A DNA stretch of 64,000 nt from Novakomyces olei (taxonomy: Eukaryota). The number at the start of each line of letters is the position of its first letter. Positions within the stretch are counted from its first letter, which is position 1. The notes under the pieces are model-generated. The model searched no databases, was not told the origin of the DNA, and saw only the letters and a list, made by a program, of their open reading frames with translations. Shown here piece by piece: positions 5,710 through 39,143 of the stretch. The stretch spans positions 1 through 64,000 of the forward strand of contig JADEYG010000009.1 of NCBI GenBank assembly GCA_016906335.1. The letters are read 5' to 3'. A program made the translations under genes and the position numbers.

Positions 5710-6004
5710 TGTCAGGAGCTGACATGTGCCTGGCACAGAAGTTGCACTCGTGCAATTAGTGTGCAGGCATTAGTTTTTAGTATAGAATATTCTAGATAGT
5801 TTTGCTTAGTAATTTAGAACGCTAAGCGGAAGTATAAGTAGGGCCTTCTGGTATCTACTTTACTTACGCTTAGCCAACTAGTGAATATAACTGTTGTGCA
5901 ATTATTCTATTGTATTCTCCCTTTTCCCGCTAGCCGTTACGATAAGCGGCGTGCAATTAAGCAGTTGTACTCAGGCGTCGAGGTTCCTGTGACACGCACT
6001 GACA
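5710..6004 (+). repeat. 5' LTR of element B
   Basis: TG...CA ends, near-identical to 15830-16126, TATAAG at 5833. Confidence 0.95.
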
Positions 6005-6056
6005 GTGCTAAGCGTCCGTTTTAGTGGGACTAGGAAGAACATTTACGGTGGGAACG

Positions 6057-6962
6057 ATGGACCCCGCGAGTATGGAGGAGTTACAAAAGTTTTGCTCACA
6101 AGTGACCGACAGGCTGAAGTTCTTGGAACAAAAGAACACAGCGCTGACGGAGAGACTAGCAAGAGTGACTAGTGATGAGAACAGCACACGTGTGTCTGCC
6201 GGCCGCGAGCCGAAGATGGCGCCTCCGCCATTATTTTCCGGAGAGCGAGGGAAACTGAATGAATTTATCATGCAGACGAAAATGATAACCGATGTGCAGA
6301 GAGAAAGATACACGACCGAGAGACAAAAGGTTCTGTTTGCAGCATCGTACTTGCGTGGGGCCGCTTTTCGTTGGTGGGAGCCGCATATTTTGCGAGAGGA
6401 TGGAGAACTACTCGACGATTTTTCGCTGTTTTGCAACGAGCTACAACGCATGTTCGGAGATAGAGACATGAAGCGAACGGCACAGAGACAGCTTAGGCAG
6501 TTGAAACAAAAAAGCTCAGCATCGCATTATGCAGCTGAATTTGAAAGACTGAGCGCCTTTCTTGCGTGGAACGACGAGGCTCTAGCAGCGCAGTATTATG
6601 AGGGCCTTAAGGACAGTGTCAAGGATGAACTGGCACGAGCAGAATCGCCTAGAGATTTGAAAGCCCTTGTCGATGTGAGCATTAGAATCGACAACAGGCT
6701 GTTTGAGAGAAACCGCGACCGAGCCAGAATCTACAGAAGAGAACCATCGCCGGGAACAAGAGAGATGCCAATGGAAATCGACGTTATGAGAACACCGACA
6801 TTGTCAAGAGACGGCGAGAGAAAGTTCAAGCACGAAAAGCCTGTCGAGTGCTATAGATGCCACAAAAAGGGGCATATAGCAAAGCATTGCCGCGAAGAGA
6901 CGCGGACTGGAACAACGAAGAAATTTGAAACAAGGGACGACTCGGAAAAAGCAAACGCCTAA
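6057..6962 (+). CDS. gag: Gag of element B (retrotransposon gag domain plus CCHC zinc knuckle)
   Basis: EPKMAPPPLFSGER, AASYLRGAAFRW, PMEID, CYRCHKKGHIAKHC; first ATG at 6057. Confidence 0.93.
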   Translation: MDPASMEELQKFCSQVTDRLKFLEQKNTALTERLARVTSDENSTRVSAGREPKMAPPPLFSGERGKLNEFIMQTKMITDVQRERYTTERQKVLFAASYLRGAAFRWWEPHILREDGELLDDFSLFCNELQRMFGDRDMKRTAQRQLRQLKQKSSASHYAAEFERLSAFLAWNDEALAAQYYEGLKDSVKDELARAESPRDLKALVDVSIRIDNRLFERNRDRARIYRREPSPGTREMPMEIDVMRTPTLSRDGERKFKHEKPVECYRCHKKGHIAKHCREETRTGTTKKFETRDDSEKANA

Positions 6963-6970
6963 TCCAGGAG

Positions 6971-7686
6971 ATGGCTGCATTGGGCACAAATGACGAGAAA
7001 CCCATCAGAAAGGACAACAAACAAATTGAGGTGACAGCCGAACTGTGCGGAATAAGTTTCAGAGCATTGGTGGACTCTGGTGCACACCTGAACTTTATTA
7101 ACCCGCGGGTTGTCAATAAACTAAACATCGACATGAAGCAAATCAAAGAGCCAATCTTTGTACAGGTGGTGGACGGACGGCCATTGCCAGGAGGACCTGT
7201 CATACTTACAACGGGAGACCTTTCTTTGATAATAGACGACCGTCTTATGCCTACAAAATTCTACATGGCCGATATCGGGCGTCATGATATCATTCTTGGT
7301 ATACAGTGGTTGCACGACAACAACCCTTCGATTGATTGGAGAAAAGGAGCAATGTCGTTCAAAGAGGACGAAAAAACAGAGGAGATGTTGGAAATAAATC
7401 TTACGGAAACAAGAGAAAAGCAAGACGATATCCCGGAAGAATACAAGGACTACAAGGAAATATTTGCTAAAGAAAAGGCAGATTCGCTTCCTGAACATGG
7501 ATTATACGACCACGAGATAAGGCTGGTCGAAGGAGCCCAGATACCCTTTGGGCCAATTTACAGCACTGTACCCACTGAAGAAGAGAGAAAAAGGATATTG
7601 AGCGACCACCACGATCACCCGCTGGCGGGACACTTCGGATCGTCGCGAACATTGGAGTTAATCAAACGCCACTATGAATGGCCAGG
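6971..7686 (+). pseudogene. pol: Element B pol 5' part: aspartic protease fused in frame to the integrase N-terminus
   Basis: ALVDSGA and DIILG protease motifs; 'IPFGPIYS' (RT start) joins directly to 'TVPTEEERKRILSDHHDHPLAGHFG'; interrupted at WPG by element A. Confidence 0.9.
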
Positions 7687-8075
7687 TGTCACGAGTGTGA
7701 CATGGCCTTAAGTAAGACAGCGAATGCTGCATTACTTAAGGATAAGGACTATATAGTTTTATATAGTATTTCATAGCGATAGCACTAGGTAGTGCTATAC
7801 AGCACCACCTTGTGCTATTACTTAGTTTCATAGAAGTCGTAGTGTATAAAAGGCTTCGCGGAAGACTTTTTACACTACGCAATATCATAAGCTACAACTT
7901 GAAGTCTCCAGGTGTCTTAGGAGAATAGGCTTAGCTTCTAGCTGTAGTTCCCTTAGTCTTCACTTACCGGAACCCCTATCGAAAGGCAGCGTGCTATCTG
8001 CCGCCCAAGGGGATTACTCGTCGTCGCGGCTGAATTCAAGCCGTGAGTCACCTAGTTGCGGGCCGACCCGTAACA
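7687..8075 (+). repeat. 5' LTR of element A
   Basis: TGTCACG...CGTAACA ends; TATAAAA at 7845; three copies in the window. Confidence 0.97.
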
Positions 8076-8171
8076 GTATATTGCGTCCACGTATTCGATA
8101 CCGGTTCGGATCGAGTGGGTGAAGAGAACGAATCGAGAGGAAGTGCTAGTCAGTCAAACTAGGCTTACAAG

Positions 8172-9095
8172 ATGGAACAAGTTGATGTATCAGAGTTGAA
8201 CCGTTTTTACCGAGCAACAGAGGAGAGATTTGCGATAATGGAAGCGGAAAACAAGTCTTTGAAAGAAAAGTTGCGTAGGGGTCAGAACGAGTTGGACCCG
8301 CGCGAACGAACGAAAGTTTTGGAGCCGAAGATGGCTAGTCCGCCCTTGTTCACGGGCGAGAGAAGTAAAGTGGATGAGTATTTGACTCAGGTGAAAATGG
8401 TGGTAACAGCGCAGCCGCAGCGATACGCCACGGACCGTGCGCGAGTTATGTTTGCCGCCTCTTTCCTGAGAGGCATTGCCTTTCGTTGGTTTAAGCCTTT
8501 TGTTGCAAAGAACGACCCGGCAATGCTCGATGATTTTGAGCGGTACTGTGACAGCATCGAGAAGCTGTATGGTGACCGAGACATGCGCGCTTCGGCGCAA
8601 AAGGAGATAAGAAGGCTACGTCAGAAGGGTTCAGTCGCTCAGTATGCGTCTGATTTTGAACGTCTTAGAGCCTATTTCGATTGGAACAACGAAGCGTTGG
8701 TGTCCCAGTTTATGGAGGGACTGAAAGATTCGGTGAAGGACGAGCTCGCTCATTCAGAGCCGCCCACGGAGCTGAGCGAATTGATAGATCACTGCATCAG
8801 AATCGATACGAGGGTGTACGAGCGTGAAAAAGATAAGTCGCGTTTTCGAGGCAGGTTGGAGCCACGCCGCCCAGAACGTACAAGCAATTACACGCCTATG
8901 GAAATTGACACTGTGAGCGAGAAGAGAGTACCCGAAAGGAAGTCGATGTCTACGGGTGAGAAGAAATGTTTTAATTGCGGAAGGGCAGGTCACTTTGCAA
9001 GACAATGCAGAGACAACACTGTCAACTTCAAAGGCCGAGAGTATGGCTACGCAGATGAAAACTCACGAGAAGCAAAAAAAAAAGAAAGAGCCTAA
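8172..9095 (+). CDS. gag: Gag of element A
   Basis: EPKMASPPLFTGER, AASFLRGIAFRWF, PMEID, CFNCGRAGHFARQC. Confidence 0.95.
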   Translation: MEQVDVSELNRFYRATEERFAIMEAENKSLKEKLRRGQNELDPRERTKVLEPKMASPPLFTGERSKVDEYLTQVKMVVTAQPQRYATDRARVMFAASFLRGIAFRWFKPFVAKNDPAMLDDFERYCDSIEKLYGDRDMRASAQKEIRRLRQKGSVAQYASDFERLRAYFDWNNEALVSQFMEGLKDSVKDELAHSEPPTELSELIDHCIRIDTRVYEREKDKSRFRGRLEPRRPERTSNYTPMEIDTVSEKRVPERKSMSTGEKKCFNCGRAGHFARQCRDNTVNFKGREYGYADENSREAKKKERA

Positions 9096-9103
9096 TTCAA
9101 ACG

Positions 9104-12100
9104 ATGGTAGAATTGGGCGGAAATGAAATGCCATCAATGAAGAAGAGCATAGAATTGCGTTTGCACGAGCGGACTATGGGCATTGCGAAGTAAAGGTAGA
9201 GATCGAAGGCATAACGACGCCCTTGAAAGGTCTAGTTGACTCGGGGGCATCTTCGAATTTCATTCATCCACGTTTGGTGTGGAGGCACAAGATTAAAACC
9301 GAAAGCCTACGCCAGCCTATTGTTCTTAAGGTTGTTGACGGAAGATGCATATCGTCTGGACCGATTCAACGCCAGACAGAGACTCTAAAATGCGTAATTC
9401 AAGGGAAAGAAACTCCTACAAAGTTCAAGGTTACCGAAATTGGCGAACACGACATTATCTTGGGGATTTCGTGGCTTAAAGAATATAATCCGCGAATCAA
9501 TTGGTCTACGTCTACTGTCGAATTCGAGAACAAGGAGCCTGACGTTAAAACGGAGTATGTTTGCGCAACTATAGTGGAATCCGAGTCAGAGCAACCCGGT
9601 GCGGTAGTACTGCCAGAGGAATACCAGGATTTCAAGGACGTTTTTGGCAAGGCAGAGGCAAATCAGCTCCCACCTCATAGGTCGTTTGACCACGAGATCA
9701 AGCTAGAAGCAGACTCTAAAATACCATTCGGACCAGTGTATGCTATATCTAGAGATGAGCAGGAGGAATTGCGAAAATATCTTGAAGAAAACCTTGCTAG
9801 ACGATTCATTGCGCGCTCTACATCGCCAGCCGGAGCCCCAATCCTATTCGTCAAGAAAAAGGACGGCAGTCTCCGTTTGTGTGTCGATTACCGAGCGCTG
9901 AATAAGATAACAGTGAAGAATAGGTACCCACTACCACTTATTGATTCGCTCTTGGACAAACTATCTGGAGCCAAGTGGTTTACAAAGATTGATCTACGCG
10001 GGGCCTACAATCTTATTCGTATAAAGAAGGGGGACGAGTGGAAGACGGCTTTTCGCACTCGTTTTGGTCACTTTGAATACCGAGTAATGCCGTTTGGGCT
10101 GACAAACGCCCCGGCCACGTTTCAGGACTTCATGAACGACACATTTCGTGATTTACTAGATATTACAGTTTTGGTTTATCTAGATGATATTCTAGTCTAT
10201 TCAAAAACTAAAGAGCAGCACATTTATGACGTACGCCAAGTTTTGGGAAGGCTACGCGATCGAAAATTATATGCTAAAGGCGAAAAATGTGAATTCCATA
10301 AACAAGAGGTGTCATTTTTGGGTTACGTATTGTCTGTTACTGGAGTGTCTATGAGCAGGGACAAGACAGAGCCTATTGCGACTTGGCCAGCTCCAAAATC
10401 GGTACATGACATACAGGTATTTTTGGGATTTTGCAACTATTATCGGCGCTTCATACCGAACTTTGCGAAAACGGTGAAACCGATCACGAATCTATTAAAA
10501 AAGGACACACCCTTTTGTTGGAATGACGAAAGTGAGCAGGCTTTTAAAGCATTAAAAGACCTATTTGCTAAAGAAATTATGTTGCGACATTACGATCCGG
10601 AGAAACAATGTGTATTGGAGACTGATGCCTCCGACTACGCATTGGGAGCAGTGTTGCTACAAGAAAATGAAAACGGAAGAGAACCAATTGCATTTATCAG
10701 TCGGCAGATGGAAGCAGCCGAGATAAACTACGATATATATGAGAAGGAATTGTTGGCAATTGTTTGGGCCTTTAGGACTTGGCGCCATTACCTCCAAGGC
10801 CACCCAAAGAAGATTATCGTTTACACGGACCACCGTAATCTTCAAACTTTCACGACGGCAAAGGTACTGACGCGTCGACAAGCTCGCTGGCAAGAAACGC
10901 TGGCCGAATATAGCTTCGACATCGTTTACAGGCCGGGCATCAACAATGGAGGGGCAGATCCCCTCAGCCGACGGCCAGATTACGCTTTAACTAAAGATGG
11001 CAGCCACAGTAAGGCACAATTCCAGCCATTGCTATCGTCAAGCCAGCTGAAATGCTTCGCAACAGATGAGACCCAGCTTCTTGACGAGAGAAATTATGCT
11101 AAACCAGAGGAACGCAGGAGAATATTGGAGGCGTTCCACGACCACCCACTGGCAGGACATTTTGGCGAGGCCAGAACTCTGGAACTGATCACCAGGAACT
11201 ACAAATGGGACGGTATTACAAAAGATGTAAAGGAATATGTCAAAAATTGCCCTACATGCATTCGAAATAAGGTATCCCGAAGGATCAAAGCCGGCATGCT
11301 ACAGCCACTGAAGATTCCGGACAGGCCTTGGTCGTCAATATCAATCGATTTTATTGTTAAGTTACCTATTTCCGATGGTTACGATTCAATCCTTGTTGTA
11401 GTGGACCGTTTCTCGAAAATGGCGCACTTTATACCGTGCAAGGAAAAGATTTCTGCTACAGAAGTGGCATATTTATTTATTAAGCACATTTTCCGACTAC
11501 ACGGCCTCCCCGAAGAAATAGTATCGGACCGAGATACTCGTCTTGTTAGTAAGTTCTGGACTGCACTAGCCGAAAATCTACAAATAAAGCTATGCAAATC
11601 CACGAGTCATCACCCGCAAAGCGACGGGCAGACCGAAAGAACGAATCAGACCCTCGAACAATACTTGAGGTGTTACATTAATTATAATCAGAACAACTGG
11701 GCACGATTATTGCCGTTAGCTGAGTTTGCTATCAATAATGCACAAAGTGCCAGTACTAAAATGTCTCCATTTTTTATTGCCGTTGGTTATCACCCACGAT
11801 TTTCTTACGAGTTTCAAGCCACGAGCAATGTACCGGCCGCAAATGAGTTTACCGCGAAACTCCAGGAAAGATTTATGACTTTACGCGCCGAGTTACAGAA
11901 GGCTCAAGACCGAATGAAATTTTATTACGACGCTAAGCGACGCGACGCCGCTACTTACCAGCCAGGCGACCTAGTTTGGATTAGAAGACAGCACATTAAA
12001 TCCAAAAGGCCGTCAGACAAACTTGACCATACAAAAATTGGCCCCTTTCCCGTATTGGAAAAAATTGGCACGAGCGCATACCGTGTTAAACTGCCCGCGA

Positions 12101-12372
12101 CCATTAGAATCCATCCCGTGTTTAACGAAACACTGCTGGAACCGCACAAAGGAGATCGTTTTTCACGAGACGCGTCCAGTGCAACCGTACCTGACGTTAT
12201 CCAAGATGAGGAAGAATTCGAAGTAGACTACATATGCGATCACAAGGGATCGGGCTCGACAAGGCGCTATTTGGTTCATTGGAAGGGTTATACAGAAAAT
12301 GACCGCACATGGGAACCGGTAGCGAACTTAGGAAACGCTAGCGAAGCTTTAGCAGAGTATCTTAAACGCTAA
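9104..12372 (+). CDS. pol: Pol of element A: protease, RT, RNase H, integrase, chromodomain (apparent 1-bp frameshift near 9126)
   Basis: LVDSGA; LRLCVDYR; YLDD; ETDASD; HHCC finger; D,D35E core; GPF; C-terminal 'EFEVDYICDH...YLVHWKGY...TWEP' chromodomain. Confidence 0.95.
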
Positions 12373-12585
12373 AAAGTTTCATGCTGAATTATTTTATTTG
12401 ATTTTTGTTTAATGACGGCGGTATTTCAACCATACTGTCCTAAATTGCGAGCAGATGTTATTCAACTACTATGCAAACTGTTTTATTATACCGAATATTC
12501 GCAAAAAAAAAAAAAAAAAAAAAAAGGGGGGAAAACTGCGTGTTTGCATCGTTAATATATGTAATGTATGAGTTAGCACGATATA

Positions 12586-12664
12586 GTGCTAAGTCACACA
12601 CACTAGTGCCAAGTCACACACACTGGTGCTTTCTGGAACATTCCCACACAGAAAAACTATAAAT
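12586..12664 (+). promoter_or_regulatory. Putative internal promoter of ORF3: 20-bp tandem repeat, heat-shock element, TATA box
   Basis: AGTGCYAAGTCACACACACT x2 from 12586; TTCtgGAAcaTTC at 12631-12643; TATAAAT at 12658-12664; ATG at 12719. Confidence 0.6.
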
Positions 12665-12718
12665 ACAGTCGCACCCCCCGGTGCTATATCACTACTTTAC
12701 ACACATATTTTTGAAATT

Positions 12719-13822
12719 ATGGAGGGACAAGAAATCGACTTGACAGCCGACCTTGAGGAGGGGGGTGAGCGCCCGCAAAAGCGATCGCGGGGCGCTAAGA
12801 ATGTTGGAGAGCACATCTGCGCTCTCTGTCACAAAGGTCTTGGCAGAAAACAAGAGCTGCACCGACACCTAAAAGAAGTTCACCACGTTGACTTTAGACT
12901 GGCTGAACTTGTGTCGGAATGGGACCTCCGAACGTCGCGCATGCCGACCCACCGGACGGGTAGGAACATACTTTGGGCCGCGGCGGCTAAGGAGCATACA
13001 TGGCTTGAGACCGTTACAGAGTCTTGGAAAGACTGTTTCGAGCGGGAGCCAACGTGGCCGGTCGTCATGGAGGACGTTACGCAACACGACCTTCAACTTT
13101 TTAACATCCGCGACCGAGCAAGATACACGGATATTTCGGTGGCTCGGTTCGTGGCGGGGTTCGTTTACGGCGCGGAGAAAATCGAATGGTACGCGGCTTA
13201 CAATGTGCCGCCCTCGACGCAGGGCTTACTAACCTTGAGCCCGAGGGCCCTACCCGCTACAAATAATTACAAAAACCGCCCCGAAACGGACTGGAGCACG
13301 GTGGTCTCTCCGGCTGGGACGATCACGGACATACACGTGGACAACGTGTTCTTGGGTCACGTGTTGGTTTGCGTGCTGGGAAGGAAATTGGTATTCGCCT
13401 GGCCACCGTCGGCTGCGAACCTTGACTACTTCGCGCAGTACCACCACAAGGTGGGGGATATGTTTTTGTACCAGGGCATTCATGAGCTCCAGGGGCTACA
13501 TGTTTGTGACCTGAAGAAGGGATTCGCCTGCTACATGGGACCCGGTTGGCTCCATGCAGTGATCTCCTTGGAAAACAGTGCGCTCACTGGTTACAGCGTA
13601 ATACCAGTTGGGCAGGAAAACACTGTGGAACGCCTAGGGAGGTGGGAATTGGAGACACTGGCGGCGGATTCGGACAACTCCGTGGCATTGGCAAATGTCT
13701 ACGAGGAGCACACGATTGGGGCTCAGGGATGGAAAAGAGCCAGAGTGAAAGGGGCAGATAGATTAGGTAGAATCAGTAGAGAAGGCCTCAAAAAATTAGA
13801 GCCCACCCTGGGAGGGGGGTAA
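12719..13822 (+). CDS. Element A ORF3: C2H2 zinc finger plus JmjC-domain 2OG/Fe(II) dioxygenase (367 aa from first ATG)
   Basis: RPQKRSR (NLS-like); CALCHKGLGRKQELHRHLKEVH; 'GTITDIHVD', 'LGRKLVFAWPP' and 'PGWLHAVISLENS' parallel the KDM2/KDM7/Epe1-type JmjC motifs TDFHxD, GxKxxxxxPP and PxGWIHAV. Confidence 0.88.
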   Translation: MEGQEIDLTADLEEGGERPQKRSRGAKNVGEHICALCHKGLGRKQELHRHLKEVHHVDFRLAELVSEWDLRTSRMPTHRTGRNILWAAAAKEHTWLETVTESWKDCFEREPTWPVVMEDVTQHDLQLFNIRDRARYTDISVARFVAGFVYGAEKIEWYAAYNVPPSTQGLLTLSPRALPATNNYKNRPETDWSTVVSPAGTITDIHVDNVFLGHVLVCVLGRKLVFAWPPSAANLDYFAQYHHKVGDMFLYQGIHELQGLHVCDLKKGFACYMGPGWLHAVISLENSALTGYSVIPVGQENTVERLGRWELETLAADSDNSVALANVYEEHTIGAQGWKRARVKGADRLGRISREGLKKLEPTLGGG

Positions 13823-14211
13823 TGTCACGAGTGTGACATGGCCTTAAGTAAGACAGCGAATGCTGCATTACTTAAGGATAAGGACTATATAGTTTTATAT
13901 AGTATTTCATAGCGATAGCACTAGGTAGTGCTATACAGCACCACCTTGTGCTATTACTTAGTTTCATAGAAGTCGTAGTGTATAAAAGGCTTCGCGGAAG
14001 ACTTTTTACACTACGCAATATCATAAGCTACAACTTGAAGTCTCCAGGTGTCTTAGGAGAATAGGCTTAGCTTCTAGCTGTAGTTCCCTTAGTCTTCACT
14101 TACCGGAACCCCTATCGAAAGGCAGCGTGCTATCTGCCGCCCAAGGGGATTACTCGTCGTCGCGGCTGAATTCAAGCCGTGAGTCACCTAGTTGCGGGCC
14201 GACCCGTAACA
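13823..14211 (+). repeat. 3' LTR of element A
   Basis: Preceded by PPT GGGAGGGGGG-TAA; followed by TSD CCAGG. Confidence 0.97.
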
Positions 14212-15384
14212 CCAGGCCTACGAAAGGACGTGGAGGATTATATACAGGGGTGCCCCACCTGCAAGAGAAATAAAGTACCGAGAAGATCACCGTCAGGAGA
14301 ATTGCATTCCCTGCAAATACCAGAAAAACCGTGGGAATCAGTGTCTATTGATTTCATAGTGCAGCTACCGAAATCGAAGAACCAGGATTCTATTTTAGTG
14401 GTTGTGGACCGTTTGACAAAAATGTGCCATTTGATCCCATGTGATACTAGGATCACAGCACAGGGAACCGCACAGTTGTTTATACAGCACGTGTTTAGGT
14501 ACCACGGACTGCCCAAAGAAATTATTTCCGACAGAGACCCGAGGTTTGTAAGTCATTTTTGGAAGGGTCTGACTACAGGACTCGGAATCAAGCTATGCCA
14601 GTCAACTAGTCACCACCCGCAGACCAACGGACAAACGGAACGAACGAATCAGTCCTTGGAACAGTACTTACGATGCTACGCCAACTACAACCAGGACAAT
14701 TGGGTCGACCTGTTGCCATTTGCAGAATTTGCCTTAAATAATGCGGTGAACGCCAGTACAAAATTGTCCCCATTTTATGCAAATTACGGCTTCCATCCCA
14801 CAACGTTTACAGTGGGCAACAGGGAAACACAAACCCCCGCTGCCGACAACTGTTTGAAGAATTGGAACGAGGTCTTTAAAGGAATCCGAGAAGCGCTGGA
14901 CACAGCCAACAAACGTATGGCAATTTACTACAATCGAAAGAGACGAATCGGACGAGAATATAGCGTTGGAGATTTTGTTTGGATACAACCTAAATACATC
15001 AATAGCGACCGACCGAGTCCCAAGCTCGATCACAAAAGAATTGGGCCATTTAAGATTGTTGAAAGAATTGGCGTGTCAGCTTATCGCGTCGACTTACCTA
15101 CGAATATCCAAATACATAATGTCTTCAACGAATCACAATTAGAATTGAGCAAAGGCGACCGATTTAACAGAGATCATACGGAGACTACAGTACCGGATAT
15201 ACTACACGATCTCAAAGAGTACGAGGTCGAATATATATGCGGACATCGCGGACGAGGAGCTGGCAAACGCTACCTCGTCCACTGGAAAGGCTACAATGAA
15301 GAGGACAGAACATGGGAAAGCGCAGCCAACTTGACAAACGCGCAAGAAACCTTAGACGACTACAACAGAAAACTACGCTCATGA
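14212..15384 (+). pseudogene. pol: Element B pol 3' part: integrase core plus chromodomain
   Basis: Continues 'WPG-LRKDVEDYIQGCPTC'; SIDF / SDRD / QTER; ends with 'EYEVEYICGH...YLVHWKGY...TWES'. Confidence 0.93.
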
Positions 15385-15454
15385 ACTCACGTATTTCTTT
15401 ATTTGTTCTTTAGATCTTATTTAATTCTTACCTATACGTGTCCTTATTCTATTG

Positions 15455-15756
<302 letters not shown>

Positions 15757-15829
15757 ACATATACATGCCTTACACTGCACATAGTACTACATCTATTGCA
15801 GGACGTTTTAACCTTTGAAGGGGGGGTAA

Positions 15830-16126
15830 TGTCAGGAGCTGACATGTGCCTGGCACAGAAGTTGCACTCGTGCAATTAGTGTGCAGGCATTAGTTTTTAG
15901 TATAGAATATTCTAGATAGTTTTGCTTAGTAATTTAGAACGCTAAGCGGAAGTATAAGTAGGGCCTTCTGGTATCTACTTTACTTACGCTTAGCCAACTA
16001 GTGAATATAACTGTTGTGCAATTATTCTATTGTATTCTCCCTTTTCCCGCTAGCCGTTACGATAAGCGGCGTGCAATTAAGCAGTTGTACTCAGGCGTCG
16101 AGGTTCGCCTGTGACACGCACTGACA
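15830..16126 (+). repeat. 3' LTR of element B
   Basis: Matches 5710-6004; PPT upstream; TSD ATTTT downstream. Confidence 0.95.
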
Positions 16127-17438
16127 ATTTTGGTCTTTCCCAAGTCAGAATGGGATCTCGTTTCTCTTCACACATTGATATTCCATCTGTAGATAATATA
16201 AAGCCGAGAAATTCAACTTTGGTGCGATGAAACTCGCATTTTTCGCCTTTTGCATACAACTGGTTGGCTCTTAGGCGTCGTAGTACTTCCTGAACATCTT
16301 TCACGTGCGTTTCTTTGTCCTTTGAAAATATTAGAATATCATCAAGATATACTAAAACTTTGTAATCAAGCAAGTCTCTAAACACATCGTTCATGAGAGC
16401 TTGAAATGTCGCGGGTGCGTTCGTCAGTCCAAAGGGCATGACGCGATATTCGAAGTGGCCATATCTTGTCCTAAAGGCTGTTTTCCATTCATCACCTTTT
16501 TTGATTCTTATCAAGTTGTAGGCACCTCTCAAGTCGATCTTTGTCATGATCTTGGCTCCGGCTAGCTTGTCGATCAAATCGTCAATCCGGGGAATTGGAT
16601 ACTTGTTTTTGATAGTAATATTATTCAGTCCCCGATAGTCGACACATAATCTCAATTCTCCATTCTTCTTCGGCACAAATAGCACTGGTGCTCCTGCCGG
16701 TGACTTAGAGCGTTTAATAAATCCCTTTGCGAGGTTCTCATTTAAGTACTCGCGTAGGTATTCTTGTTCTTTCTGATTAACACTGTAAACGGGACCAAAA
16801 GGTATTTTTGCGTCCTTCAGTAGTTCAATCTCGTGGTCGTACGATCGATGCGGTGGTAGCACGTCGTTCTTTGGTTCTTCATAAACATCTCTGAACTCCT
16901 CATATTCTGGAGGCAATTCAATTTTCTCGTTTCCAATCTGACAGTCATCCTCGCTGTCTTGAATCATCATCTCGTTTATACTGTTAAGTTCAATAGATTC
17001 CAGCGTAGGCTGTCGTAACGTCAGGCGTCCTGTAATCCAATCAATATTGGGATTGTTCTTGGTCAACCATGGGATACCTAAGATCGCATCATGGTGTCCA
17101 ATTTGCGCCACATAAAAAATCTCAGTCGACCTAATACCTTGCACTTCAATAGGTATATCCTTGGTCGTTCTTCGTACTAGACCAGATGCCATTGCTCGGC
17201 CATCGGCTACTTTCACAAAAATAGGACTCTCTAGTCTCTTTGTCTCAATCTTTAGACGCCATATCACTCTTGGATGTATAAAATTTGCGTCTGCACCGCT
17301 ATCTAGCAAAGCGTGCAATTCCTTTTCTTCAAATTTGCATAACACTTCAAGCTTTCCGCTTGACAGTTTCTTATCTGGTGGCTTTCGCTCAATACCACCT
17401 AGCGACACCACCTCGGTCTCTAGGTCCGATCTTTTAAA
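16127..17438 (-). pseudogene. pol: Element C pol 5' part (protease plus reverse transcriptase)
   Basis: ALLDSGA, LRLCVDYR, MPFGL, YLDD; cut by B at 16127. Confidence 0.93.
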
Positions 17439-18433
17439 TCATGTACTTTCTTGCTTGGCACATTTCCATTCGTAAACGACTGCTTTGGAAAAGGCGCTTG
17501 GCAATTCTTGGACACATGTCCCTTCTCGTAGCACCGATAGCAGGTAACGTCCTTGCTCTGGTTTGGCTTCGAACTGCGCTCCATGGCGCCATACTTAGCG
17601 CCATAGTTTCTTGTATCAGTTTGTTGCGGGCGCGAGTATCGGCGTTTGGTAGCGTCATAATTAACGCTTGTCTCTTCGTCATCAATCCGTCTTGTCATCA
17701 GATTGTCAATCTCCATCGGTGTACTTCCATAATGCAGAGGTCTTGCATACTCCCTTTCACTGTAACTAAATCGCTGTCTAGCCTTGTTTCTCTCGAACAA
17801 ACGGCCATCGATCTTCACACATTCATCAATCAAGGTGCCCAAAAGTTCAGGCATTTCTCTCCTTGACAACTCATCTTTGATATTCTCTTTCAACCCATCG
17901 TAGAACTGAGCAACTAATGCATCATTGTTCCAGGTTAGCCAAGATTTCAATCTTTCAAACTCAGTCGCATACTGAGATACAGATCCTCTCTGTCTCAAGA
18001 GACGGATACTTCGCTCTGCTGTTCGTTTGACGTCCCGGTCTCCGAACATCCTCTCGAGCGTGTCACAAAAACAATTAAAATCGTCGAGAATAACTTCATT
18101 TTCGTTTCTCACATGAGGCTCAAACCATCTGAAAGCCGCTCCGCGAAGGTAAGACGCCGCAAACATCACTTGCTGTCGCGCCGAGCGATAGCGATCTGGT
18201 TGACTGCCAATAATCATCCTCACGCAGGTCAAAAATTCACCAGTTTTCGAGCGTTCGCCGGAAAAGAATGGTGGTGGTGCCATTTTAGGCTCCTTCGACC
18301 CTCGTTCCTGCACGGTTCCCTTAGCGATACCGAGTTGGTCAGCGAGAGTGCGGTTCTCTTTCTCCAGCCGTTCCAAACGCGCTGTGGTTTGCTCAAGAAA
18401 CCTATTCAACTGCTCAAAATCCGCTGCCGACAT
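17420..18433 (-). CDS. gag: Gag of element C
   Basis: EPKMAPPPFFSGER, AASYLRGAAFRWF, PMEID, CYRCYEKGHVSKNC. Confidence 0.95.
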   Translation of the reverse strand: MSAADFEQLNRFLEQTTARLERLEKENRTLADQLGIAKGTVQERGSKEPKMAPPPFFSGERSKTGEFLTCVRMIIGSQPDRYRSARQQVMFAASYLRGAAFRWFEPHVRNENEVILDDFNCFCDTLERMFGDRDVKRTAERSIRLLRQRGSVSQYATEFERLKSWLTWNNDALVAQFYDGLKENIKDELSRREMPELLGTLIDECVKIDGRLFERNKARQRFSYSEREYARPLHYGSTPMEIDNLMTRRIDDEETSVNYDATKRRYSRPQQTDTRNYGAKYGAMERSSKPNQSKDVTCYRCYEKGHVSKNCQAPFPKQSFTNGNVPSKKVHDLKDRT

Positions 18434-18875: not shown

Positions 18876-19946
18876 GGCTCGGTTCGTGGCGGGGTTCGTT
18901 TACGGCGCGGAGAAAATCGAATGGTACGCGGCTTACAATGTGCCGCCCTCGACGCAGGGCTTACTAACCTTGAGCCCGAGGGCCCTACCCGCTACAAATA
19001 ATTACAAAAACCGCCCCGAAACGGACTGGAGCACGGTGGTCTCTCCGGCTGGGACGATCACGGACATACACGTGGACAACGTGTTCTTGGGTCACGTGTT
19101 GGTTTGCGTGCTGGGAAGGAAATTGGTATTCGCCTGGCCACCGTCGGCTGCGAACCTTGACTACTTCGCGCAGTACCACCACAAGGTGGGGGATATGTTT
19201 TTGTACCAGGGCATTCATGAGCTCCAGGGGCTACATGTTTGTGACCTGAAGAAGGGATTCGCCTGCTACATGGGACCCGGTTGGCTCCATGCAGTGATCT
19301 CCTTGGAAAACAGTGCGCTCACTGGTTACAGCGTAATACCAGTTGGGCAGGAAAACACTGTGGAACGCCTAGTGAGGTGGGAATTGGAGACACTGGCGGC
19401 GGATTCGGACAACTCCGTGGCATTGGCAAATGTCTACGAGGAGCACACGATTGGGGCTCAGGAATGGAAAAGAGCCAGAGTGAAAGGGGCAGATAGATTA
19501 GGTAGAATCAGTAGAGAAGGCCTCAAAAAATTAGAGCCCACCCTGGGAGGGGGGTAATGTCACGAGTGTGACATGGCCTTAAGTAAGACAGCGAATGCTG
19601 CATTACTTAGGGATAAGGACTATATAGTTTTATATAGTATTTCATAGCGATAGCACTAGGTAGTGCTATACAGCACCACCTTGTGCTATTACTTAGTTTC
19701 ATAGAAGTCGTAGTGTATAAAAGGCTTCGCGGAAGACTTTTTACACTACGCAATATCATAAGCTACAACTTGAAGTCTCCAGGTGTCTTAGGAGAATAGG
19801 CTTAGCTTCTAGCTGTAGTTCCCTTAGTCTTCACTCACCGGAACCCCTATCGAAAGGCAGCGTGCTATCTGCCGCCCAAGGGGATTACTCGTCGTCGCGG
19901 CTGAACTCAAGCCGTGAGTCACCTAGTTGCGGGCCGACCCGTAACA
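18876..19946 (+). mobile_element. Second copy of family A (A'): 3' part of JmjC ORF, PPT and 3' LTR (19558-19946)
   Basis: Matches 13141-14211 with few substitutions (by eye, two in the ORF giving G/V and G/E, and three in the LTR). Its downstream flank differs from A, so it is an independent insertion. Confidence 0.95.
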
Positions 19947-25692: not shown

Positions 25693-26831
25693 ATGGGATG
25701 ATTTGTATCATGTATTTTGCTAGGACATTTACTTCACTATAAATTATTTACTCACACTCATGTACACTTTTATCACCTAACATTAATTTCGGCAATTTCT
25801 GGGAGGGTAAAACTAATCTAAACGGGACGTGACCCTCTTGCCTGTCTAGTATGCGTCCCATTGTTTTATTTTCCTAGAGTATCAACTTTATTATCAAGAG
25901 TCATTTTGAATAATTACATGTCCATTATTACATACTGCTTTATTGTTAATTATACTGCCGTCAATGATCTTAACCATACTTGTCCATTTCCTATTCGTCC
26001 ACCGAGGTCTGGCACTTGTATGCAAAGTCGCAGAGTGCAAAAACTCTAAAACTCACAGGTAATTATTTGGTAATGCGATGATAAAAATCTACGCTAAAAT
26101 CACGCTGGTCATTACAGAATCATTAGATCCAGTAAAGAAATGGCATATGCGTAAACAGACCACGGGATATCCAGGATCAATCCTAATAGATAAGAGTTAC
26201 ACGTGCTTTTTATTCAACAGTCACCATCGAATCAGACTTCGTATTTGCAGAGGCTGATACATACTTCGTAGTCGCAATCGCATTTTCGCCATATATGCTG
26301 TACTTTTGTGGAACCGGTCCTCGGGAAGTTTTTGAGGACTTGTAATCGCCAACCTTTTCGTCTTTATTGATCTCGTCTAGTTTTCGTAGATTTTATTTCT
26401 TTTTGTTCCCAAAGTACGTAGATGCCTCTTCTATTAGACACGACAGAAACGATTTCTTTTTCGGATCATGTGTCTGTGAGCCTATTTTCAATGTTAGAAT
26501 TTACAAATACTCACAACAAACCTTCTTCAAAATGATCAGCCGTCTGCCCAGATCTTAAGCTCTTTATCCGCTGCACGTGCTGGTGCGTTCTCGCGGCCGC
26601 GCGGTGAAAAGACTGGCTGCGTAGCAACTAAAAACTGGTTAGACATATGTACTACGGTCTGGAAAAATCACGAAACAAACTTACCTGGCCACTCACATAC
26701 TGTGCAACCAACTGAATTATTACACGGTCTGGCCGAATCATGCCGTGTGACTGCCGCCGCCTCTAGCTTTATCACAAGTCTCTTATTTGATTTATGAGAC
26801 GCGCTGGTAATATGATGAATATAAATGATAA

Positions 26832-27050
26832 TATAAAAATATAAAAATATAAAAATATAAAAATATAAAAATATAAAAATATAAAAATATAAAAATATAA
26901 AAATATAAAAATATAAAAATATAAAAATATAAAAATATAAAAATATAAAAATATAAAAATATAAAAATATAAAAATATAAAAATATAAAAATATAAAAAT
27001 ATAAAAATATAAAAATATAAAAATATAAAAATATAAAAATATAAAAATAT
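26832..27050. repeat. Perfect 8-bp tandem repeat (ATATAAAA)n
   Basis: Directly visible. Confidence 0.95.
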
Positions 27051-27495
27051 GTATACGACTGGTATGGAGCAACGAATTCAACTGGGAAGTTACATGATAT
27101 TTTGGCTGGCTTCTATGAACCTTTTCCCTCTTTCTATAGCGCTACAAATTTCTGGTAGAAACTAAAGGGTTACTTTCCGTGCGTTTTATTGCCTACATTA
27201 TATGTGAATTCCCGCTTCATCCCCGCAATTTTCATGTGCTATATTAGTAATTAATTGGACTAAAGTAATTCTATCAGACCCGAGACAATATTCGGAACGA
27301 GAAAGCAAATTGCACTAGTGAATCTTGCTAAAGCAATGCGTATCTGACAAGCAAACATTGTTTACGTTCTTCAACCTTTTGCTTTTGTTTTTTGATTTTT
27401 CCTTCCTCTCCTCGGTCTCCGCAAACACTCGTTGATTTTTATTCTCCATTTATTAGTGATTATTTTTCTACAATTCAGCTTTTGTCTTCTCAACA

Positions 27496-29253
27496 ATGAA
27501 CTTTTTATTTGCCGCTACCGGTAGCCAGTACTCGAAGCGCAAGCGTGCCTATAGGGCGTGTGACAATTGCCGTAAACGCCGACGAAAATGTGAAGTTGTA
27601 AAGGGCTCAGATATATGCTTCAACTGCAAAAGGAGCAATATGACATGCGTCTGGTCCGATCAGGCCGACGCTGTCGCCGTCGGCGACAACACGAGTGAAG
27701 CCGAGAACGGAGCACCCGCTAGCAAACGTATGCAACTTCAACCTGGCGGCTTTAATGCCGAGTCCAGCGCGATCTCCTCCTCTTCAAGGGACGACGAAGA
27801 AGGCATATTTGAGTCCTCTACTACCCGGCCTGGTGTTGAGCGCAAACCGGATTTAACTCAGTTCATTGGACTCAGCAATCCTCTTATGGGATTATTGTGC
27901 GAAGATCCGTCCATGCTTTTAGGCGCTCGGAGGTTAGGGTTACAGCTTACATGGAGCCGCGAGGAGAACAAGAGGTGCCTCGGCGACTTGGATCCGGATA
28001 TATACTATTTTCTGAAAAGCAAAGGCGAACTAAACCCTGCTTTTGGCCCAAAGTTAAGGCGCAAGTATACGTCATTGTTTTTAAAGTACGTGTATCCCCT
28101 TTACCCCGTCGTGGATCTGGCTCTTATCACGGAAATAGCGGCAACGGGGCAATCGACACAACTCCCATTATTGCTGGTTAATTCTATCTTATTAGCAGGT
28201 GTCCGTTTTGATGAAAGTACTGAGCAAAGAAGAGTCGATTGTGAGGATTTGTTTCGGCGTTGCTCGTTACTTACACTAGTGGAAACTGATAAAATGGTTT
28301 TGGCTGCTGCCTACCTGCTCATGTCCACTCATCAGGAAGGCCATCAGGGAGCTAATACATCGGCCGAGCTTATCGCTAAAGCCAATAATCTATGTGTGGA
28401 GATTGGGCTACATGCATCTGACTATTCTGGCCTTGATCATCTATCGGATCATCGATTGCGATCCCGTATCTTTTGGACTTCTTATTGCTGTGACCGGCTT
28501 TCGGCTTCTACTAATGGCAGAATGCTTGTTTATAATCGTCTTGACTTTGAAAAACATGAGCCTGCTCAAGATGATTTTGATTCTTATGAAGATTATCTTG
28601 TATTTCACGATTGGTATTCGCTCTGTACACTTAATGAACGGATAATTCTTGCCCGCTACCGGGCTCCTGGGTCAAGGGAACTTGATCCAGATTTGGAAGC
28701 TCATCTGCTGTCATGGACGCCTAATGAAGGGTACAATGATATCTTCTTGAACTACCTTGTTCGAGCTCATCAAATGACGATGATTGCCTTTTACCGTACA
28801 ATGTTATCTCCTTCTTCGTTTATTGAGCAGCCACAAATTTCTGCAGTTGCTCAAATTCAATCTTGTTGTGCTCAAGTAATAACGGCTCCAGTTTTGCACA
28901 AGGGTCTTATTACTGTTCACGCAATCGTACACGCTCTGTCAGTATATCATATAGAAATGCTTCTATTGAGCGATGAAAAAGAACTTTCAGAGTTGCGCAA
29001 TTTGATGGAAAAGTCAATAGAATTGCTTCGGGAACTTTCTCCTACTTGGTGGCTTGCTGCGGCGGCTGTCAAGCTTTGTAAAAGAGCCTTGGAAAACATT
29101 CCAAAGCAAAGGGAACATTTTGCTGGTCTCACGGACGATAATACGGCAGAGCATATGGATGAATTAGACATTACAATGGCTGATTTCTTGTCGGTGGCCC
29201 TGTCAAACCCTTCAAGTCTTAATAATCGGTATCCTTTTTTTACAAGCTTTTAG
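27496..29253 (+). CDS. Zn(II)2Cys6 transcription factor with fungal TF middle-homology region
   Basis: ACDNCRKRRRKC...CFNC...C; 'GLH...RSRIFWTSYCCDR...GR'. Confidence 0.93.
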   Translation: MNFLFAATGSQYSKRKRAYRACDNCRKRRRKCEVVKGSDICFNCKRSNMTCVWSDQADAVAVGDNTSEAENGAPASKRMQLQPGGFNAESSAISSSSRDDEEGIFESSTTRPGVERKPDLTQFIGLSNPLMGLLCEDPSMLLGARRLGLQLTWSREENKRCLGDLDPDIYYFLKSKGELNPAFGPKLRRKYTSLFLKYVYPLYPVVDLALITEIAATGQSTQLPLLLVNSILLAGVRFDESTEQRRVDCEDLFRRCSLLTLVETDKMVLAAAYLLMSTHQEGHQGANTSAELIAKANNLCVEIGLHASDYSGLDHLSDHRLRSRIFWTSYCCDRLSASTNGRMLVYNRLDFEKHEPAQDDFDSYEDYLVFHDWYSLCTLNERIILARYRAPGSRELDPDLEAHLLSWTPNEGYNDIFLNYLVRAHQMTMIAFYRTMLSPSSFIEQPQISAVAQIQSCCAQVITAPVLHKGLITVHAIVHALSVYHIEMLLLSDEKELSELRNLMEKSIELLRELSPTWWLAAAAVKLCKRALENIPKQREHFAGLTDDNTAEHMDELDITMADFLSVALSNPSSLNNRYPFFTSF

Positions 29254-36428: not shown

Positions 36429-39143
36429 TTAATCATAGAGATCATCATTCTCCTCATCATTATCCTCCACGGCATCTGTCATGTCCTCGTCAGGTGAAAC
36501 CATTCCGGACCCGGACACCTCATGATTCGGCTCGACAACCAAATGGTTATTGCTAACATCAACATGAGCAGTTTCACCATCAAGGATTTGGCCATTGAGT
36601 AGGAGAATGGCCATTTTGTTCAAGATTTCGTTTTGAATCAGCCGATTCAATGGCCGAGCTCCGTATTGCGGAGAATACCCGGCTTGGCCTAGCCAGTCAC
36701 GTGCAGCATCAGACAGTTTAATAATAACATTACGATTATTTTGATGCAGTCTCTTTTGCACTTCTGCCAGTCTGTTATCCACGATTCTGCGGATATCGCG
36801 CTTAGCCAGCCGATTGAATATAATGATATTCGAAATACGGTTCAAAAACTCTGGTCGGAAAAACCGTCGAATGGCCTCCATTACTAGTTCACGAGTAGCT
36901 GGGTCAATTTTGCCATCGGTAGAAGTTGAATTAGTTAAAAATTCAGCTCCCAGGTTTGATGTCATTATAATGACTGCATTCTTTGCATCAACAACGTGTC
37001 CCTGGCCCGAAGTTATACGGCCATCATCCATTAATTGCAATAAAACTGTCAACACTTCTGGTGCAGCCTTTTCAATTTCATCAAAGAGAATCACGGAAAA
37101 CGGGTGTCGACGTAATTGCTCCGTCAATTGTCCACCGGCCTCGTGGCCCACATATCCTGGCGGAGCTCCAATCAACCGGGAAACACTGTGCTTTTCCATA
37201 TACTCAGACATATCGATCCGGATCATGGCATTTTCATCGTCAAATAAAAACGCAGCCAGCTCCTTAGTAAGCAGAGTTTTACCCGTTCCACTGGGCCCAC
37301 AAAACAGGAAAGAAGCAATTGGCTGATTAGGGTTAGACAGGCCACTGCGGCTGAGGCGGATAGCATTGGCAACTGCCTTGACTGCTTCTTGCTGGCCAAC
37401 CACCCGGGCAGACAAGTACTTTTCCATGTTCAACAGCTTTTCTTTCTCCGTAGTCTTAAGTCGCGTAACCGGAATTCCAGTCCACCGGGCAACAATCTCA
37501 TTTATTTGATCAACGCCCACTACGTCAGTAGACAGCTGCTCGTCCGCTTGGCCTGAGGCTGCCCGCTCCAGATCCTGTTGCATTTTAGCGCGCTCCAACT
37601 CGTCAATACGTTTCTGCATCTCTGGAATGACGTAATACTCCAGGTCGGCAGCGGTAGCCAGATCCTGTCGGCGACGAGCATCTTGAGCCTTGAATTTAAG
37701 CTCGTCCAATCGTTTACGTGCATTCTGCACCTCATCGCCCCTCCGCTTCTCTGCCTCGTATTTTTCCTTGAGCGGTCGCAGCTCTTCTTCGATATTGGCC
37801 GCTTCTTTACGAGCTGTTTCCAATCGCTCTTTGCTAGCAGGATCCTTTTCCCTCTCTAATGCGTGTATTTCTACCTGCAGGCGCAAGAGATTACGCTCCA
37901 GCAAGTCAACTTCCTCCGGTTGAGAGTCTTTTGCCACTCGTACAGCTGCAGCTGCCTCATCAATCAGGTCAATTGCCGAGTCAGGTAGCCTACGAGAGGT
38001 CAAGTATCGGGATGCCAAGGTGGCGGCGGCCACCAGTGCTGAATCAGATATGGTTACACCGTGGTGTACCTCGTATTTCTCCTTGAGACCTCGTAGAATA
38101 GAGATACAATCTGCCACTGAAGGTTCCTTGACCATAACGATCTGGAACCGGCGTTCAAACGCAGCGTCCTTTTCAATGTACTTTCTATACTCGTCGAGTG
38201 TAGTTGCTCCGATACAATGCAATTTGCCTCGGGCAAGCATGGGCTTGAGCAGATTGGCTGCGTCCATTCCGCCATCACCTGAACTGCCAGCGCCCATTAG
38301 CAAATGGATCTCATCAACGAAAAGAACAATCATCTCGTCCGACTGTTCAATCTCGGAAAGCACCGATTTAATGCGCTCCTCAAACTCTCCACGGAACTTT
38401 GAGCCGGCTACTAAACTGCCTACATCAAGAGACAATAGCCGGCAGTTTGCTAGGCTGGCGGGTACATCGCTGTTCACAATTCGCTGAGCCAGTCCCTCAG
38501 CAATTGCCGTTTTACCAACGCCGGGATCACCGATCAGGACAGGGTTGTTTTTAGTGCGCCGACTAAGAACCCGGATAGTCCGTCGAATCTCTTCTTCTCG
38601 TCCAATCACAGGGTCAAGATCGCCCTTACGCGCGGCCGCTGTAAGATCCAAAGTATACTTGGCCAGAGCTTCAAAGCCCTCTTCCGCATCTTTGGACTCA
38701 ACGTGCCGGTTGCCCCGGATCTGTGTTAGCGCCTGCTCAATTGCATTCGGCCGCACTCCGGCTTCTTCGAACAATGGCTTTATTGAAGAGTCTTCCGCTA
38801 ACGCCGCGATCAAATGATCTACAGACACAAACGAATCACGCTGCTTCTTCATCAGATTCTGAGCGGAACGGATAACTTTGGCCAATGCTGATCCGAGTCC
38901 AATTTGTTCAGGCGGCGGGTCTTGGGCAGGTTGCCGGACGAGCAGCCGGTTAACGGCCCTTTCGAACTTTGCTATATCACCTCCAGTCTTATCAATTACA
39001 CTGCGTAGCAAGTTGTCCGGTTCTGCCAGGATTCCAGCGACGAGATGAACCGGCTGAACTTGCGAATGCGCATACGTCGAAGCATTTTCCTGAGCTGCTT
39101 CGAGTGCCTTTGTAGCCTTGTTTGTCAATTGCAAATTGTTCAT
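36429..39143 (-). CDS. HSP104: Hsp104/ClpB disaggregase
   Basis: Clp-N domain, two AAA+ modules ([16 protein letters not shown]), RIDMSEY, GARPL and acidic C-terminus DDLYD; ATG 39143. Confidence 0.97.

Follow-up and report, generated by a model that had tools for sequence, protein, structure and literature searches.

Foamy viruses possess an internal promoter (IP) that drives the tas and bet genes and whose regulation is linked to that of the LTR (PMC13220597, PMC8670036). In the yeast element Ty1, internal initiation gives rise to a subgenomic RNA, Ty1i, and thereby to a protein of its own, the restriction factor p22 (10.1101/176248). Promoters bearing heat shock elements (HSEs) have been found by experiment to confer heat induction on ONSEN of Arabidopsis and on four families of Macrostomum (PMC12801592); the same source also refers to activation of MAGGY, a fungal chromovirus, by heat. 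The HSE-bearing Mag, CsRN1 and Gmr1 families of Macrostomum lignano and ONSEN are treated in PMC12801592 and PMC13602373, and PMC3978060 makes no mention of heat shock element, HSE or LTR promoter. Ty3/gypsy elements may carry additional open reading frames in the interval from pol to the 3' LTR, as described for the aORFs of plants (PMC7264820) and for the gene brtn of Boty/BcGypsy1 from Botrytis (PMC8365987). Among the matches listed in a limited literature search, no description of a JmjC-carrying retrotransposon was found.

Against this background, we put forward that the 346-bp spacer between pol and an additional gene, ORF3, in a fungal Ty3/gypsy element, here termed element B, may act as an internal promoter for RNA polymerase II, with a layout resembling that of the promoter in the element's own LTRs, a reading to which we assign a probability of about 0.58.

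Element B occupies positions 7687-14211 of the 64-kb stretch of Novakomyces olei DNA that was analysed as a whole (the window) and, like all of its features given below, is read on the forward strand. It is a young Ty3/gypsy chromovirus, as its LTRs, target duplication, gag, order of the pol domains and C-terminal chromodomain show, and it is nested within an older element. The 5' LTR (7687-8075, 389 bp) is 100% identical to the 3' LTR (13823-14211); both have TG...CA ends, next to which the target-site duplication CCAGG is found at 7682-7686 and again at 14212-14216. The 5' LTR contains TATAAAAG at 7845 and, in U3, two 20-bp units of the form [T/C]AGCAC-N6-GTGCTA (7780-7819), the counterparts of which lie at 13916-13955 in the 3' LTR. 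The open frame of gag (8163-9095, ATG at 8172) contains the Pfam domains Retrotrans_gag, Ty3_capsid and zf-CCHC. The pol open frame (9127-12372, stop codon at 12370-12372) specifies reverse transcriptase, RNase H, integrase, an SH3 domain and the chromodomain, with Pfam domains called on 10087-12372. The polypurine tract GGGAGGGGGG (13811-13820) is situated within the end of ORF3, directly 5' of TAA and the 3' LTR, and the same arrangement of polypurine tract, TAA and 3' LTR is present in a related element of the window, element A.

ORF3 (12719-13822, 367 aa) is a real extra gene of element B, with a C2H2 finger and a KDM2/7-like JmjC domain. It is located between pol and the 3' LTR, that is at the same position as the plant aORFs and brtn; unlike brtn and many plant aORFs, which run antisense or lack a known fold, ORF3 is sense-oriented, with a JmjC fold. 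The JmjC identity proposed in the earlier note is corroborated by profile, conserved residues and fold in agreement, despite the failure of ORF3 to pass the curated Pfam thresholds for JmjC and Cupin_8. Its sole match was to Cupin_8 (E 0.074; 13.4 bits versus a cut-off of 27.4), and the JmjC_2 threshold was passed by one of the 23 scanned relatives (P0006). The HxD...H metal triad (H206, D208 and H279) and the 2-oxoglutarate-binding lysine K223 are conserved without or almost without exception across 55 sequences. When compared with PDB sequences, the family profile matched KDM7, KDM2A and PHF8 at 1e-14 to 1e-10 (best value 2.6e-14). A structure model of ORF3 (pLDDT 88) retrieved ceKDM7A as the top Foldseek hit (2e-14), with KIAA1718, PHF8 and KDM2A next. 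The modelled JmjC fold is accordingly nearest to the KDM2/KDM7/PHF8 group, and by its sequence ORF3 is to be placed in a divergent branch of JmjC. We regard it as a histone-demethylase-like, predicted enzyme with putative demethylase activity.

A 90-95% identical relative (run X4) differs in ORF3 at 13 listed positions, nine of them synonymous; for pol, 12 of the 15 listed differences are synonymous. Conserved residues, profile matches, predicted fold and mostly synonymous differences all suggest that ORF3 is worth expressing. Its intactness in element B itself proves little because the element is so young, as is evident from its identical LTRs. A word-indexed protein search found no relatives of ORF3, and a single-query search of metagenome, viral and prokaryote genome contigs found none either. 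With the integrase as query, 78 distant chromovirus loci of at most 55% identity were obtained from metagenomes; when ORF3 and 54 aligned homologues were compared with these loci (tblastn, E <= 1e-3), 0 relatives were detected, many of the loci having little DNA 3' of pol.

All features that the earlier note had listed for the spacer were found in place upon direct reading. Past the pol stop codon an A23 G6 tract is encountered (12503-12531, with A23 at 12503-12525 and G6 at 12526-12531), which may serve as a promoter element of the poly(dA:dT) type or represent a polypurine tract, either a second or a vestigial one; element A likewise has an A-run 3' of pol (15722-15756). Further downstream, a 20-bp sequence is duplicated in tandem (12586-12605 and 12606-12625) and followed by GTGC. 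Tandem Repeats Finder reports this region as 12584-12630 with period 20, 2.3 copies and 88% matches. Together with its surroundings, the duplication (12586-12629) makes up three in-register, enhancer-like units of 20 bp (12574-12633), and a fourth unit is present at 12669-12688, 3' of the TATA box. All four units contain CAC-N6-GTGCY, and the spacer and the U3 region of the LTR have the 20-bp register of these units in common. In the whole window, CAC-N6-GTGCY is matched 18 times versus 2.43 expected, a number that none of 100 shuffles reached, and 17 of the 18 matches fall into the spacer or into the three LTR copies of this element. The more stringent TAGCAC-N6-GTGCTA, with up to one mismatch allowed, is matched eight times versus 0.18 expected. 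The spacer repeat array is thus beyond chance. Local alignment of the spacer with the LTR U3 of element B scored 24, as compared with 17.3 +/- 2.2 for shuffles, six of 300 of which reached 24, and is modestly significant; alignment with the LTR of element A is not significant (126 of 300 shuffles reach the score).

Two side observations concern shorter motifs. GTGCTAT occurs 22 times in the window versus 7.5 expected, 12 of these occurrences coming from the three LTR copies; two matches upstream of an Hsp104-type gene are too few to interpret. STRE-like AGGGG and AP-1-like TAAGTCA, both short and common motifs, were spotted by eye in the spacer region.

The spacer also contains candidate core promoter elements. 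The TATA box TATAAATA (12658-12665, with TATAAAT at 12658-12664) lies 61 nt 5' of the ORF3 start codon (12719-12721) and matches the 8-base consensus TATAWAWR, although such octamers are commonplace, with 121 matches in the window. About 34 nt 3' of the TATA box follows a CTACTTTAC/TTTACAC motif that is also present 3' of TATA in the LTRs. This post-TATA motif, common to the LTRs (CTACTTTACAC, 12692-12702), marks the predicted start-site region. CTACTTTAC itself occurs three times in the window versus 0.5 expected, once in the spacer and once in each of the two LTRs of element A. The composite pattern TATAWR-N12-32-YTTTACWY gives nine matches versus 0.73 expected, but it was chosen post hoc, after the sites had been seen, and three of the matches fit by construction. 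The nine sites are the five LTR copies, the spacer, a pre-gag site in a third, minus-strand element and two others.

Taken in order, A23G6, three 20-bp units, TATA box, fourth unit and the CTACTTTAC/TTTACAC motif would constitute a promoter from which transcription may start near 12690-12702 and proceed as far as the poly(A) site in the 3' LTR. The predicted product is a subgenomic mRNA of approximately 1.3-1.5 kb with ORF3 at its first AUG. In fact, the 148 nt from 12571 to 12718 are free of ATG and seven ATGs are present between the pol stop codon and 12570, so that ORF3 is the first AUG only on an mRNA starting in the spacer. Core elements, AUG-free leader and upstream repeats, the features expected of an internal RNA polymerase II promoter, can therefore all be read from the spacer.

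If ORF3 were expressed in the manner of a retroviral env gene, from a genomic RNA that starts at the LTR promoter and is then spliced, the TATA box, the heat-shock-type motif and the repeats of the spacer would have no promoter role. Extra 3' ORFs of gypsy-like elements and retroviruses are usually expressed from spliced subgenomic RNAs, and two candidate YAG acceptors are present, at about 12650 and 12667, from which the sequence is ATG-free onward to ORF3. However, the intron would be about 4.5 kb long, typical fungal introns are far shorter than this, and no convincing branch-point motif was seen by eye in the spacer. Furthermore, splicing does not explain why the LTR repeat motif and the post-TATA motif recur between pol and ORF3, and we consider it very improbable.

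The order of the motifs bears another possibility, namely that the spacer is a relic without a present promoter role. It would then be what remained of a former 3' LTR, namely U3 and the start of R, together with a vestigial polypurine tract, after 3' transduction of a flanking JmjC gene by read-through; alternatively, A23G6 would act as a second plus-strand primer site, with ORF3 perhaps being silent cargo. The purine tract with its G6, followed by AAAAC and TG, does resemble the genuine junction in elements A and B, G6-7 TAA TG, and U3-like units, a TATA box and an R-start-like motif come next, in the order of an LTR. On the other hand, the amplification of the 20-bp units to three in tandem suggests continuing use, the ATG-free leader has been kept, and the excess of synonymous differences in ORF3 of the 90-95% relative (9 of 13) likewise speaks against silent cargo. 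A relic origin is also compatible with promoter function at present; we rate the absence of such a function as improbable.

The window holds no second copy of the spacer, which matches the rest only at A-runs. DNA contigs of runs X1 and X2 cover it, with no listed difference, and the contigs of the 90-95% relative (run X4) lie outside 12381-13200 only.

For the internal promoter, as set out above, the shared motif has a further consequence. The earlier note had claimed that ORF3 is transcribed independently of the LTR. The internal promoter is supported by the sequence architecture of the spacer; independence is weakened: because the spacer carries the LTR's own repeated motif, co-regulation of ORF3 with the LTR is suggested instead. 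Since CAC-N6-GTGCY is common to both, the factor that drives the LTR probably also drives ORF3. Against the promoter reading as a whole it has to be held that CAC-N6-GTGCY could act at the RNA level or be a functionless remnant of an old LTR.

The earlier note had furthermore ascribed ORF3 transcription to heat. Between the 20-bp repeats and the TATA box, 14 nt 5' of the latter, the spacer contains a perfect three-unit HSE-type motif (12631-12643; TTCTGGAACATTC / TTCnnGAAnnTTC / TTCtgGAAcaTTC) in which three nGAAn units of alternating orientation adjoin one another at 5-bp spacing, with agreement at 9/9 positions. The motif thus has the canonical form, and by its sequence it may pass as a legitimate HSF site, the function of which is hypothetical. 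On this basis it was proposed that HSF bound to TTCtgGAAcaTTC acts as a promoter switch under heat or proteotoxic stress, activating ORF3 without the LTR and enabling a silenced copy to reactivate itself. The perfect register and the place shortly before the TATA box are in favor of this proposal, as is a probability of about 0.005 for a chance match within the 346-bp spacer if taken in isolation. Further points in its favor are the demethylase-like cargo and the heat induction that HSEs in LTR retrotransposon promoters confer elsewhere (PMC12801592).

The frequency of the motif, however, is at chance level. On both strands of the window, two perfect three-unit HSEs stand against 0.98 expected, 25 of 100 shuffles reach two, and with one mismatch allowed there are 25 versus 23.9 expected. 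The only other perfect copy (29027-29039) is coding and lies within a gene for a Zn2Cys6 transcription factor. The motif was, moreover, picked after 64 kb had been read, so that many motifs and places were effectively tried. The spacer HSE is no longer than the three units required, the 5-bp blocks on either side depart from the pattern (10/12 positions for four units), and the LTR of element B has no HSE even when one mismatch is allowed. A gene of the Hsp104/ClpB type (36429-39143, minus strand) has no perfect triple upstream; it has instead an imperfect array at 39305 (13/18 positions, six units) that is joint best in the window. In this window, a perfect triple is thus neither required nor enough. 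With neither excess nor further units found, the spacer HSE is not beyond chance. In addition, the LTR enhancer motif in the spacer argues for co-regulation rather than independence, and we judge HSF-dependent activation of ORF3 unlikely.

A more far-reaching reading would see in the element a self-contained anti-silencing circuit. Under heat or proteotoxic stress an LTR-like internal promoter with its HSF site would remain accessible or be opened and would express a C2H2-JmjC demethylase. Its finger would guide this protein to the CAC-N6-GTGCY repeats, taken to be unique to the LTR and internal promoter of the element, and the removal of repressive histone methylation from the element's own copies would re-arm the LTR. 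We deem this scheme extremely improbable.

If the spacer promoter works, a fungal retrotransposon would express a chromatin-modifying enzyme from a second promoter that employs the same cis-motif as its LTR. This would be a simple and testable case in which a transposon controls a cargo gene directed against silencing, and the CAC-N6-GTGCY units would serve as a well-defined bait for identifying the factor, of host or element origin, that drives this family.

Element B would also possess a fungal counterpart of the foamy virus internal promoter. The two would have in common a second promoter within a reverse-transcribing element that is located 3' of the structural and enzymatic genes and serves accessory or regulatory proteins. 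The foamy virus IP, however, resides within env and is controlled by a transactivator that the virus itself encodes, whereas the candidate promoter of element B, predicted from sequence, occupies a fungal retrotransposon's non-coding spacer and is followed by cargo for a JmjC-like enzyme. With Ty1i, the predicted ORF3 transcript would share an internal start in a fungal LTR retrotransposon and a product of its own. Ty1 is of the copia type and Ty1i starts inside gag, yielding a truncated Gag that restrains the element; in element B, by contrast, a separate gene is preceded by its own TATA box and enhancer-like repeats. The HSEs of ONSEN and the Macrostomum families, finally, belong to the LTR and control the element in its entirety, while the LTR of element B is devoid of an HSE and a single minimal, putative one is found in an internal spacer.

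The 346-bp spacer that separates the pol stop from the extra gene ORF3 in element B, a young chromovirus, contains every feature listed for it in the earlier note, each in its place. The last base of the pol frame is 12372, an A23 run occupies 12503-12525 with G6 directly after it, 12586-12605 and 12606-12625 are two copies of a 20-bp unit (Tandem Repeats Finder: period 20, 2.3 copies, 88% matches), and a motif of the heat-shock element (HSE) type, TTCTGGAACATTC, lies at 12631-12643, followed by TATAAAT at 12658 and the ORF3 ATG at 12719. It is plausible that the spacer acts as an internal promoter, a reading to which we assign a probability of about 0.6, and the case for this candidate promoter is one of anatomy. 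A-tract, repeated enhancer-like units, TATA box and a start region at about 12690-12702 would form an internal promoter of the LTR type, from which a subgenomic mRNA would extend to the 3' LTR's poly(A) site, ORF3 being the first reading frame on it. The start window predicted earlier, 12685-12700, fits this putative start region.

Self-comparison of the window and the junction sequences place the bounds of element B at 7687-14211. Its two LTRs of 389 bp are 100% identical, start with TG and end with CA, and CCAGG is duplicated on both sides of the element. Its gene content is that of a Ty3/gypsy chromovirus: gag is followed by a pol frame (9127-12372) that encodes RT, RNase H, integrase, an SH3-like domain and a chromodomain. 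Contigs from the sequencing runs X1 and X2 carry one extra A after 9125 (site 9125-9128), past the gag stop (9095) and ahead of the open pol frame, which starts at 9127; owing to the missing A, which reflects either a one-base deletion or a homopolymer error, the pol frame relative to gag differs in the window copy. Element B is inserted within the integrase zinc-binding domain of element A (5710-16126), an older relative whose integrase frame is broken at 7686 and continues from 14212, and whose LTRs (5710-6004 and 15830-16126) are 99.3% identical by self-comparison. In element A the protease is followed almost at once by the integrase zinc domain, and since no RT or RNase H match was found between the two, the element seems to have lost internal sequence by deletion. 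From its pol to its LTR runs low-complexity AT sequence without an extra ORF, in which an (AAT)n array (simple repeats at 15624-15776) precedes an A-run of about 36. As element A, which lacks ORF3, likewise shows a long A-run in the stretch from pol to PPT, the A-tract as such is a family trait. The region 3.9-20.6 kb, in which at least four chromovirus copies are nested, also holds a third copy of element B, truncated (18876-19946, 99.5% identical), which adjoins a minus-strand gypsy element (gag 17420-18433, RT 16077-17192). Because this copy comprises only the last 226 codons (3' 60%) of ORF3 and the LTR, the pol-ORF3 spacer is single, with no second copy in the 64-kb window.

ORF3 extends from 12719 to 13822; its final TAA directly adjoins the 3' LTR and the polypurine tract GGGAGGGGGG falls within its last codons. 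A Pfam scan yielded nothing above Pfam thresholds, the top sub-threshold matches being Cupin_8 (E 0.074) and, at residues 32-55, one weak C2H2 finger. HMMER, run in full over 1.84 billion representatives, returned 152 relatives at E <= 1e-3, the best with 32% identity (E 1.2e-28); the nearest named ones come from short contigs of Tilletia species, where they are annotated as hypothetical proteins. When ORF3 is aligned with 54 of the 152, H206 is invariant and D208, K223 and H279 are kept in at least 90% of sequences, these residues being the metal triad and 2-oxoglutarate lysine of JmjC enzymes. The profile of the family alignment matches KDM7, KDM2A and PHF8 chains (2.6e-14 to 4.5e-10), the same enzymes are the best Foldseek matches of the AlphaFold model (pLDDT 88.0, pTM 0.86; ceKDM7A at 2.1e-14), and a language-model atlas places ORF3 near fungal JmjC clusters (score 0.97). 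The designation as a JmjC ORF therefore holds, in the sense of a divergent branch. The host itself is a fungus, its later window genes including a Zn2Cys6/Fungal_trans factor and a kinase with a Fungal_KA1 domain; a further, unrelated host gene is the ORF at 60267-60908, in which a GRF zinc ribbon accompanies an AlkB-like 2OG-Fe(II) oxygenase domain. Contigs from the food metagenome X4, 90-95% identical to element B, cover parts of pol, ORF3 and LTR; synonymous changes make up 9 of the 13 listed differences in ORF3 and 12 of the 15 listed in pol, which gives a modest hint that ORF3 is maintained like pol. An X1 contig is about 88% identical to ORF3 over 12905-13216 (38 differences in 312 nt) and unrelated upstream of 12905, which points to a further, more diverged ORF3-like sequence in different surroundings in the same organism.

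The most solid feature of the candidate promoter is a newly found motif common to spacer and LTR. The tandem duplication belongs to a larger array in 20-bp register (12574-12593, 12594-12613, 12614-12633), in which CAC fills positions 4-6 and GTGC positions 13-16 of every unit. Just past the TATA box lies a fourth spacer unit (12669-12688), and two adjacent units of the same design are found in the LTR U3 (7780-7799 and 7800-7819). CAC-N6-GTGCY occurs 18 times in the window against 2.43 expected, a count reached in none of 100 shuffles; the three LTR copies account for 12 of the matches and the spacer for five, and one lies elsewhere. All eight matches to TAGCAC-N6-GTGCTA with at most one mismatch (0.18 expected) lie in LTR copies or the spacer, and local alignment of spacer and LTR picks the repeat part (score 24; shuffled 17.3 +/- 2.2, with 24 reached in 6 of 300). 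Because the repeated spacer motif is the LTR's own, the factor acting on the LTR would switch on ORF3 jointly with it. Transcription of ORF3 independently of the LTR, as the earlier note had it, is thus disfavoured, the shared motif pointing to co-regulation.

Past the TATA box, the 9-mer CTACTTTAC at 12692 is one of three in the window (0.5 expected), the others occurring only past the TATA box of element A's two LTRs. TATAWR followed after 12-32 nt by YTTTACWY has nine matches against 0.73 expected, namely the spacer, all five LTRs of elements A and B, a third-element site and two others, of which only the third-element site is independent since the pattern was composed after three sites had been seen; this site precedes the gag ATG of that minus-strand third element by about 390-430 nt. 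The order of parts in the spacer (purine tract ending in G6, TG, U3-like units, TATA box, R-start-like motif) resembles a degenerate PPT-LTR junction and for this reason suggests that the promoter may derive from an ancient 3' LTR, with the JmjC gene acquired downstream of it. That such a spacer is now a relic without present function seems improbable to us. On the genomic RNA ORF3 lies behind all of gag and pol; seven ATGs occur within the first 200 nt past the pol stop and none in the 148 nt ahead of the ORF3 ATG. Splicing from the LTR transcript could also express ORF3 and acceptor-like YAGs are present, but the intron would measure about 4.5 kb, unusually long in fungi, and we consider this route very improbable.

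Control of the proposed internal promoter by HSF is a legitimate but weak hypothesis and, judged from the motif, rather unlikely. The pattern TTCnnGAAnnTTC occurs twice in the window, both strands counted, against 0.98 expected (two or more in 25 of 100 shuffles), and 25 times against 23.9 expected when one mismatch is allowed. The second perfect HSE (29027-29039) lies within the coding sequence of a Zn2Cys6 gene (27496-29253). A long simple repeat, a perfect array of 8-bp period and about 300 bp, is located at 26769-27072. The HSE at 12631 has exactly three units, the adjoining 5-bp units failing to fit, and the LTR of element B has no match even with one mismatch permitted. From the window rate, the chance of a perfect HSE within the 346-bp spacer is about 0.005, a figure to be read with the fact that the motif was picked after viewing 64 kb in which many motifs and upstream regions could catch the eye. 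In yeast HSP104 counts among the classical targets of HSF, and an Hsp104/ClpB-type disaggregase gene (36429-39143, minus strand, 904 aa) serves as an internal control. Upstream of it (39144-39560) there is no perfect triple; instead an imperfect six-unit array at about 39305-39335 (13 of 18 positions, three perfect units) ties as the best such array of the window. On this evidence a likely genuine heat-shock promoter can do without a perfect triple here, and a perfect triple does not suffice to mark one. Beyond the HSE-like array, an 18-bp unit is repeated in 6.2 tandem copies (39438-39548).

No published JmjC gene in a retrotransposon was found among the literature matches listed, and none of 78 distantly related metagenome chromovirus loci, many of which extend only a little past pol, has an ORF3 relative. 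Plants (PMC7264820) and Botrytis (PMC8365987) provide known cases of an additional gene placed between pol and 3' LTR, and also known are internal promoters for accessory products in foamy viruses (PMC13220597, PMC8670036) and yeast Ty1 (10.1101/176248). HSEs confer heat inducibility on ONSEN and four Macrostomum families, in each case from within the LTR (PMC12801592, PMC13602373), whereas in element B the LTR lacks a match and the HSE lies in the spacer.
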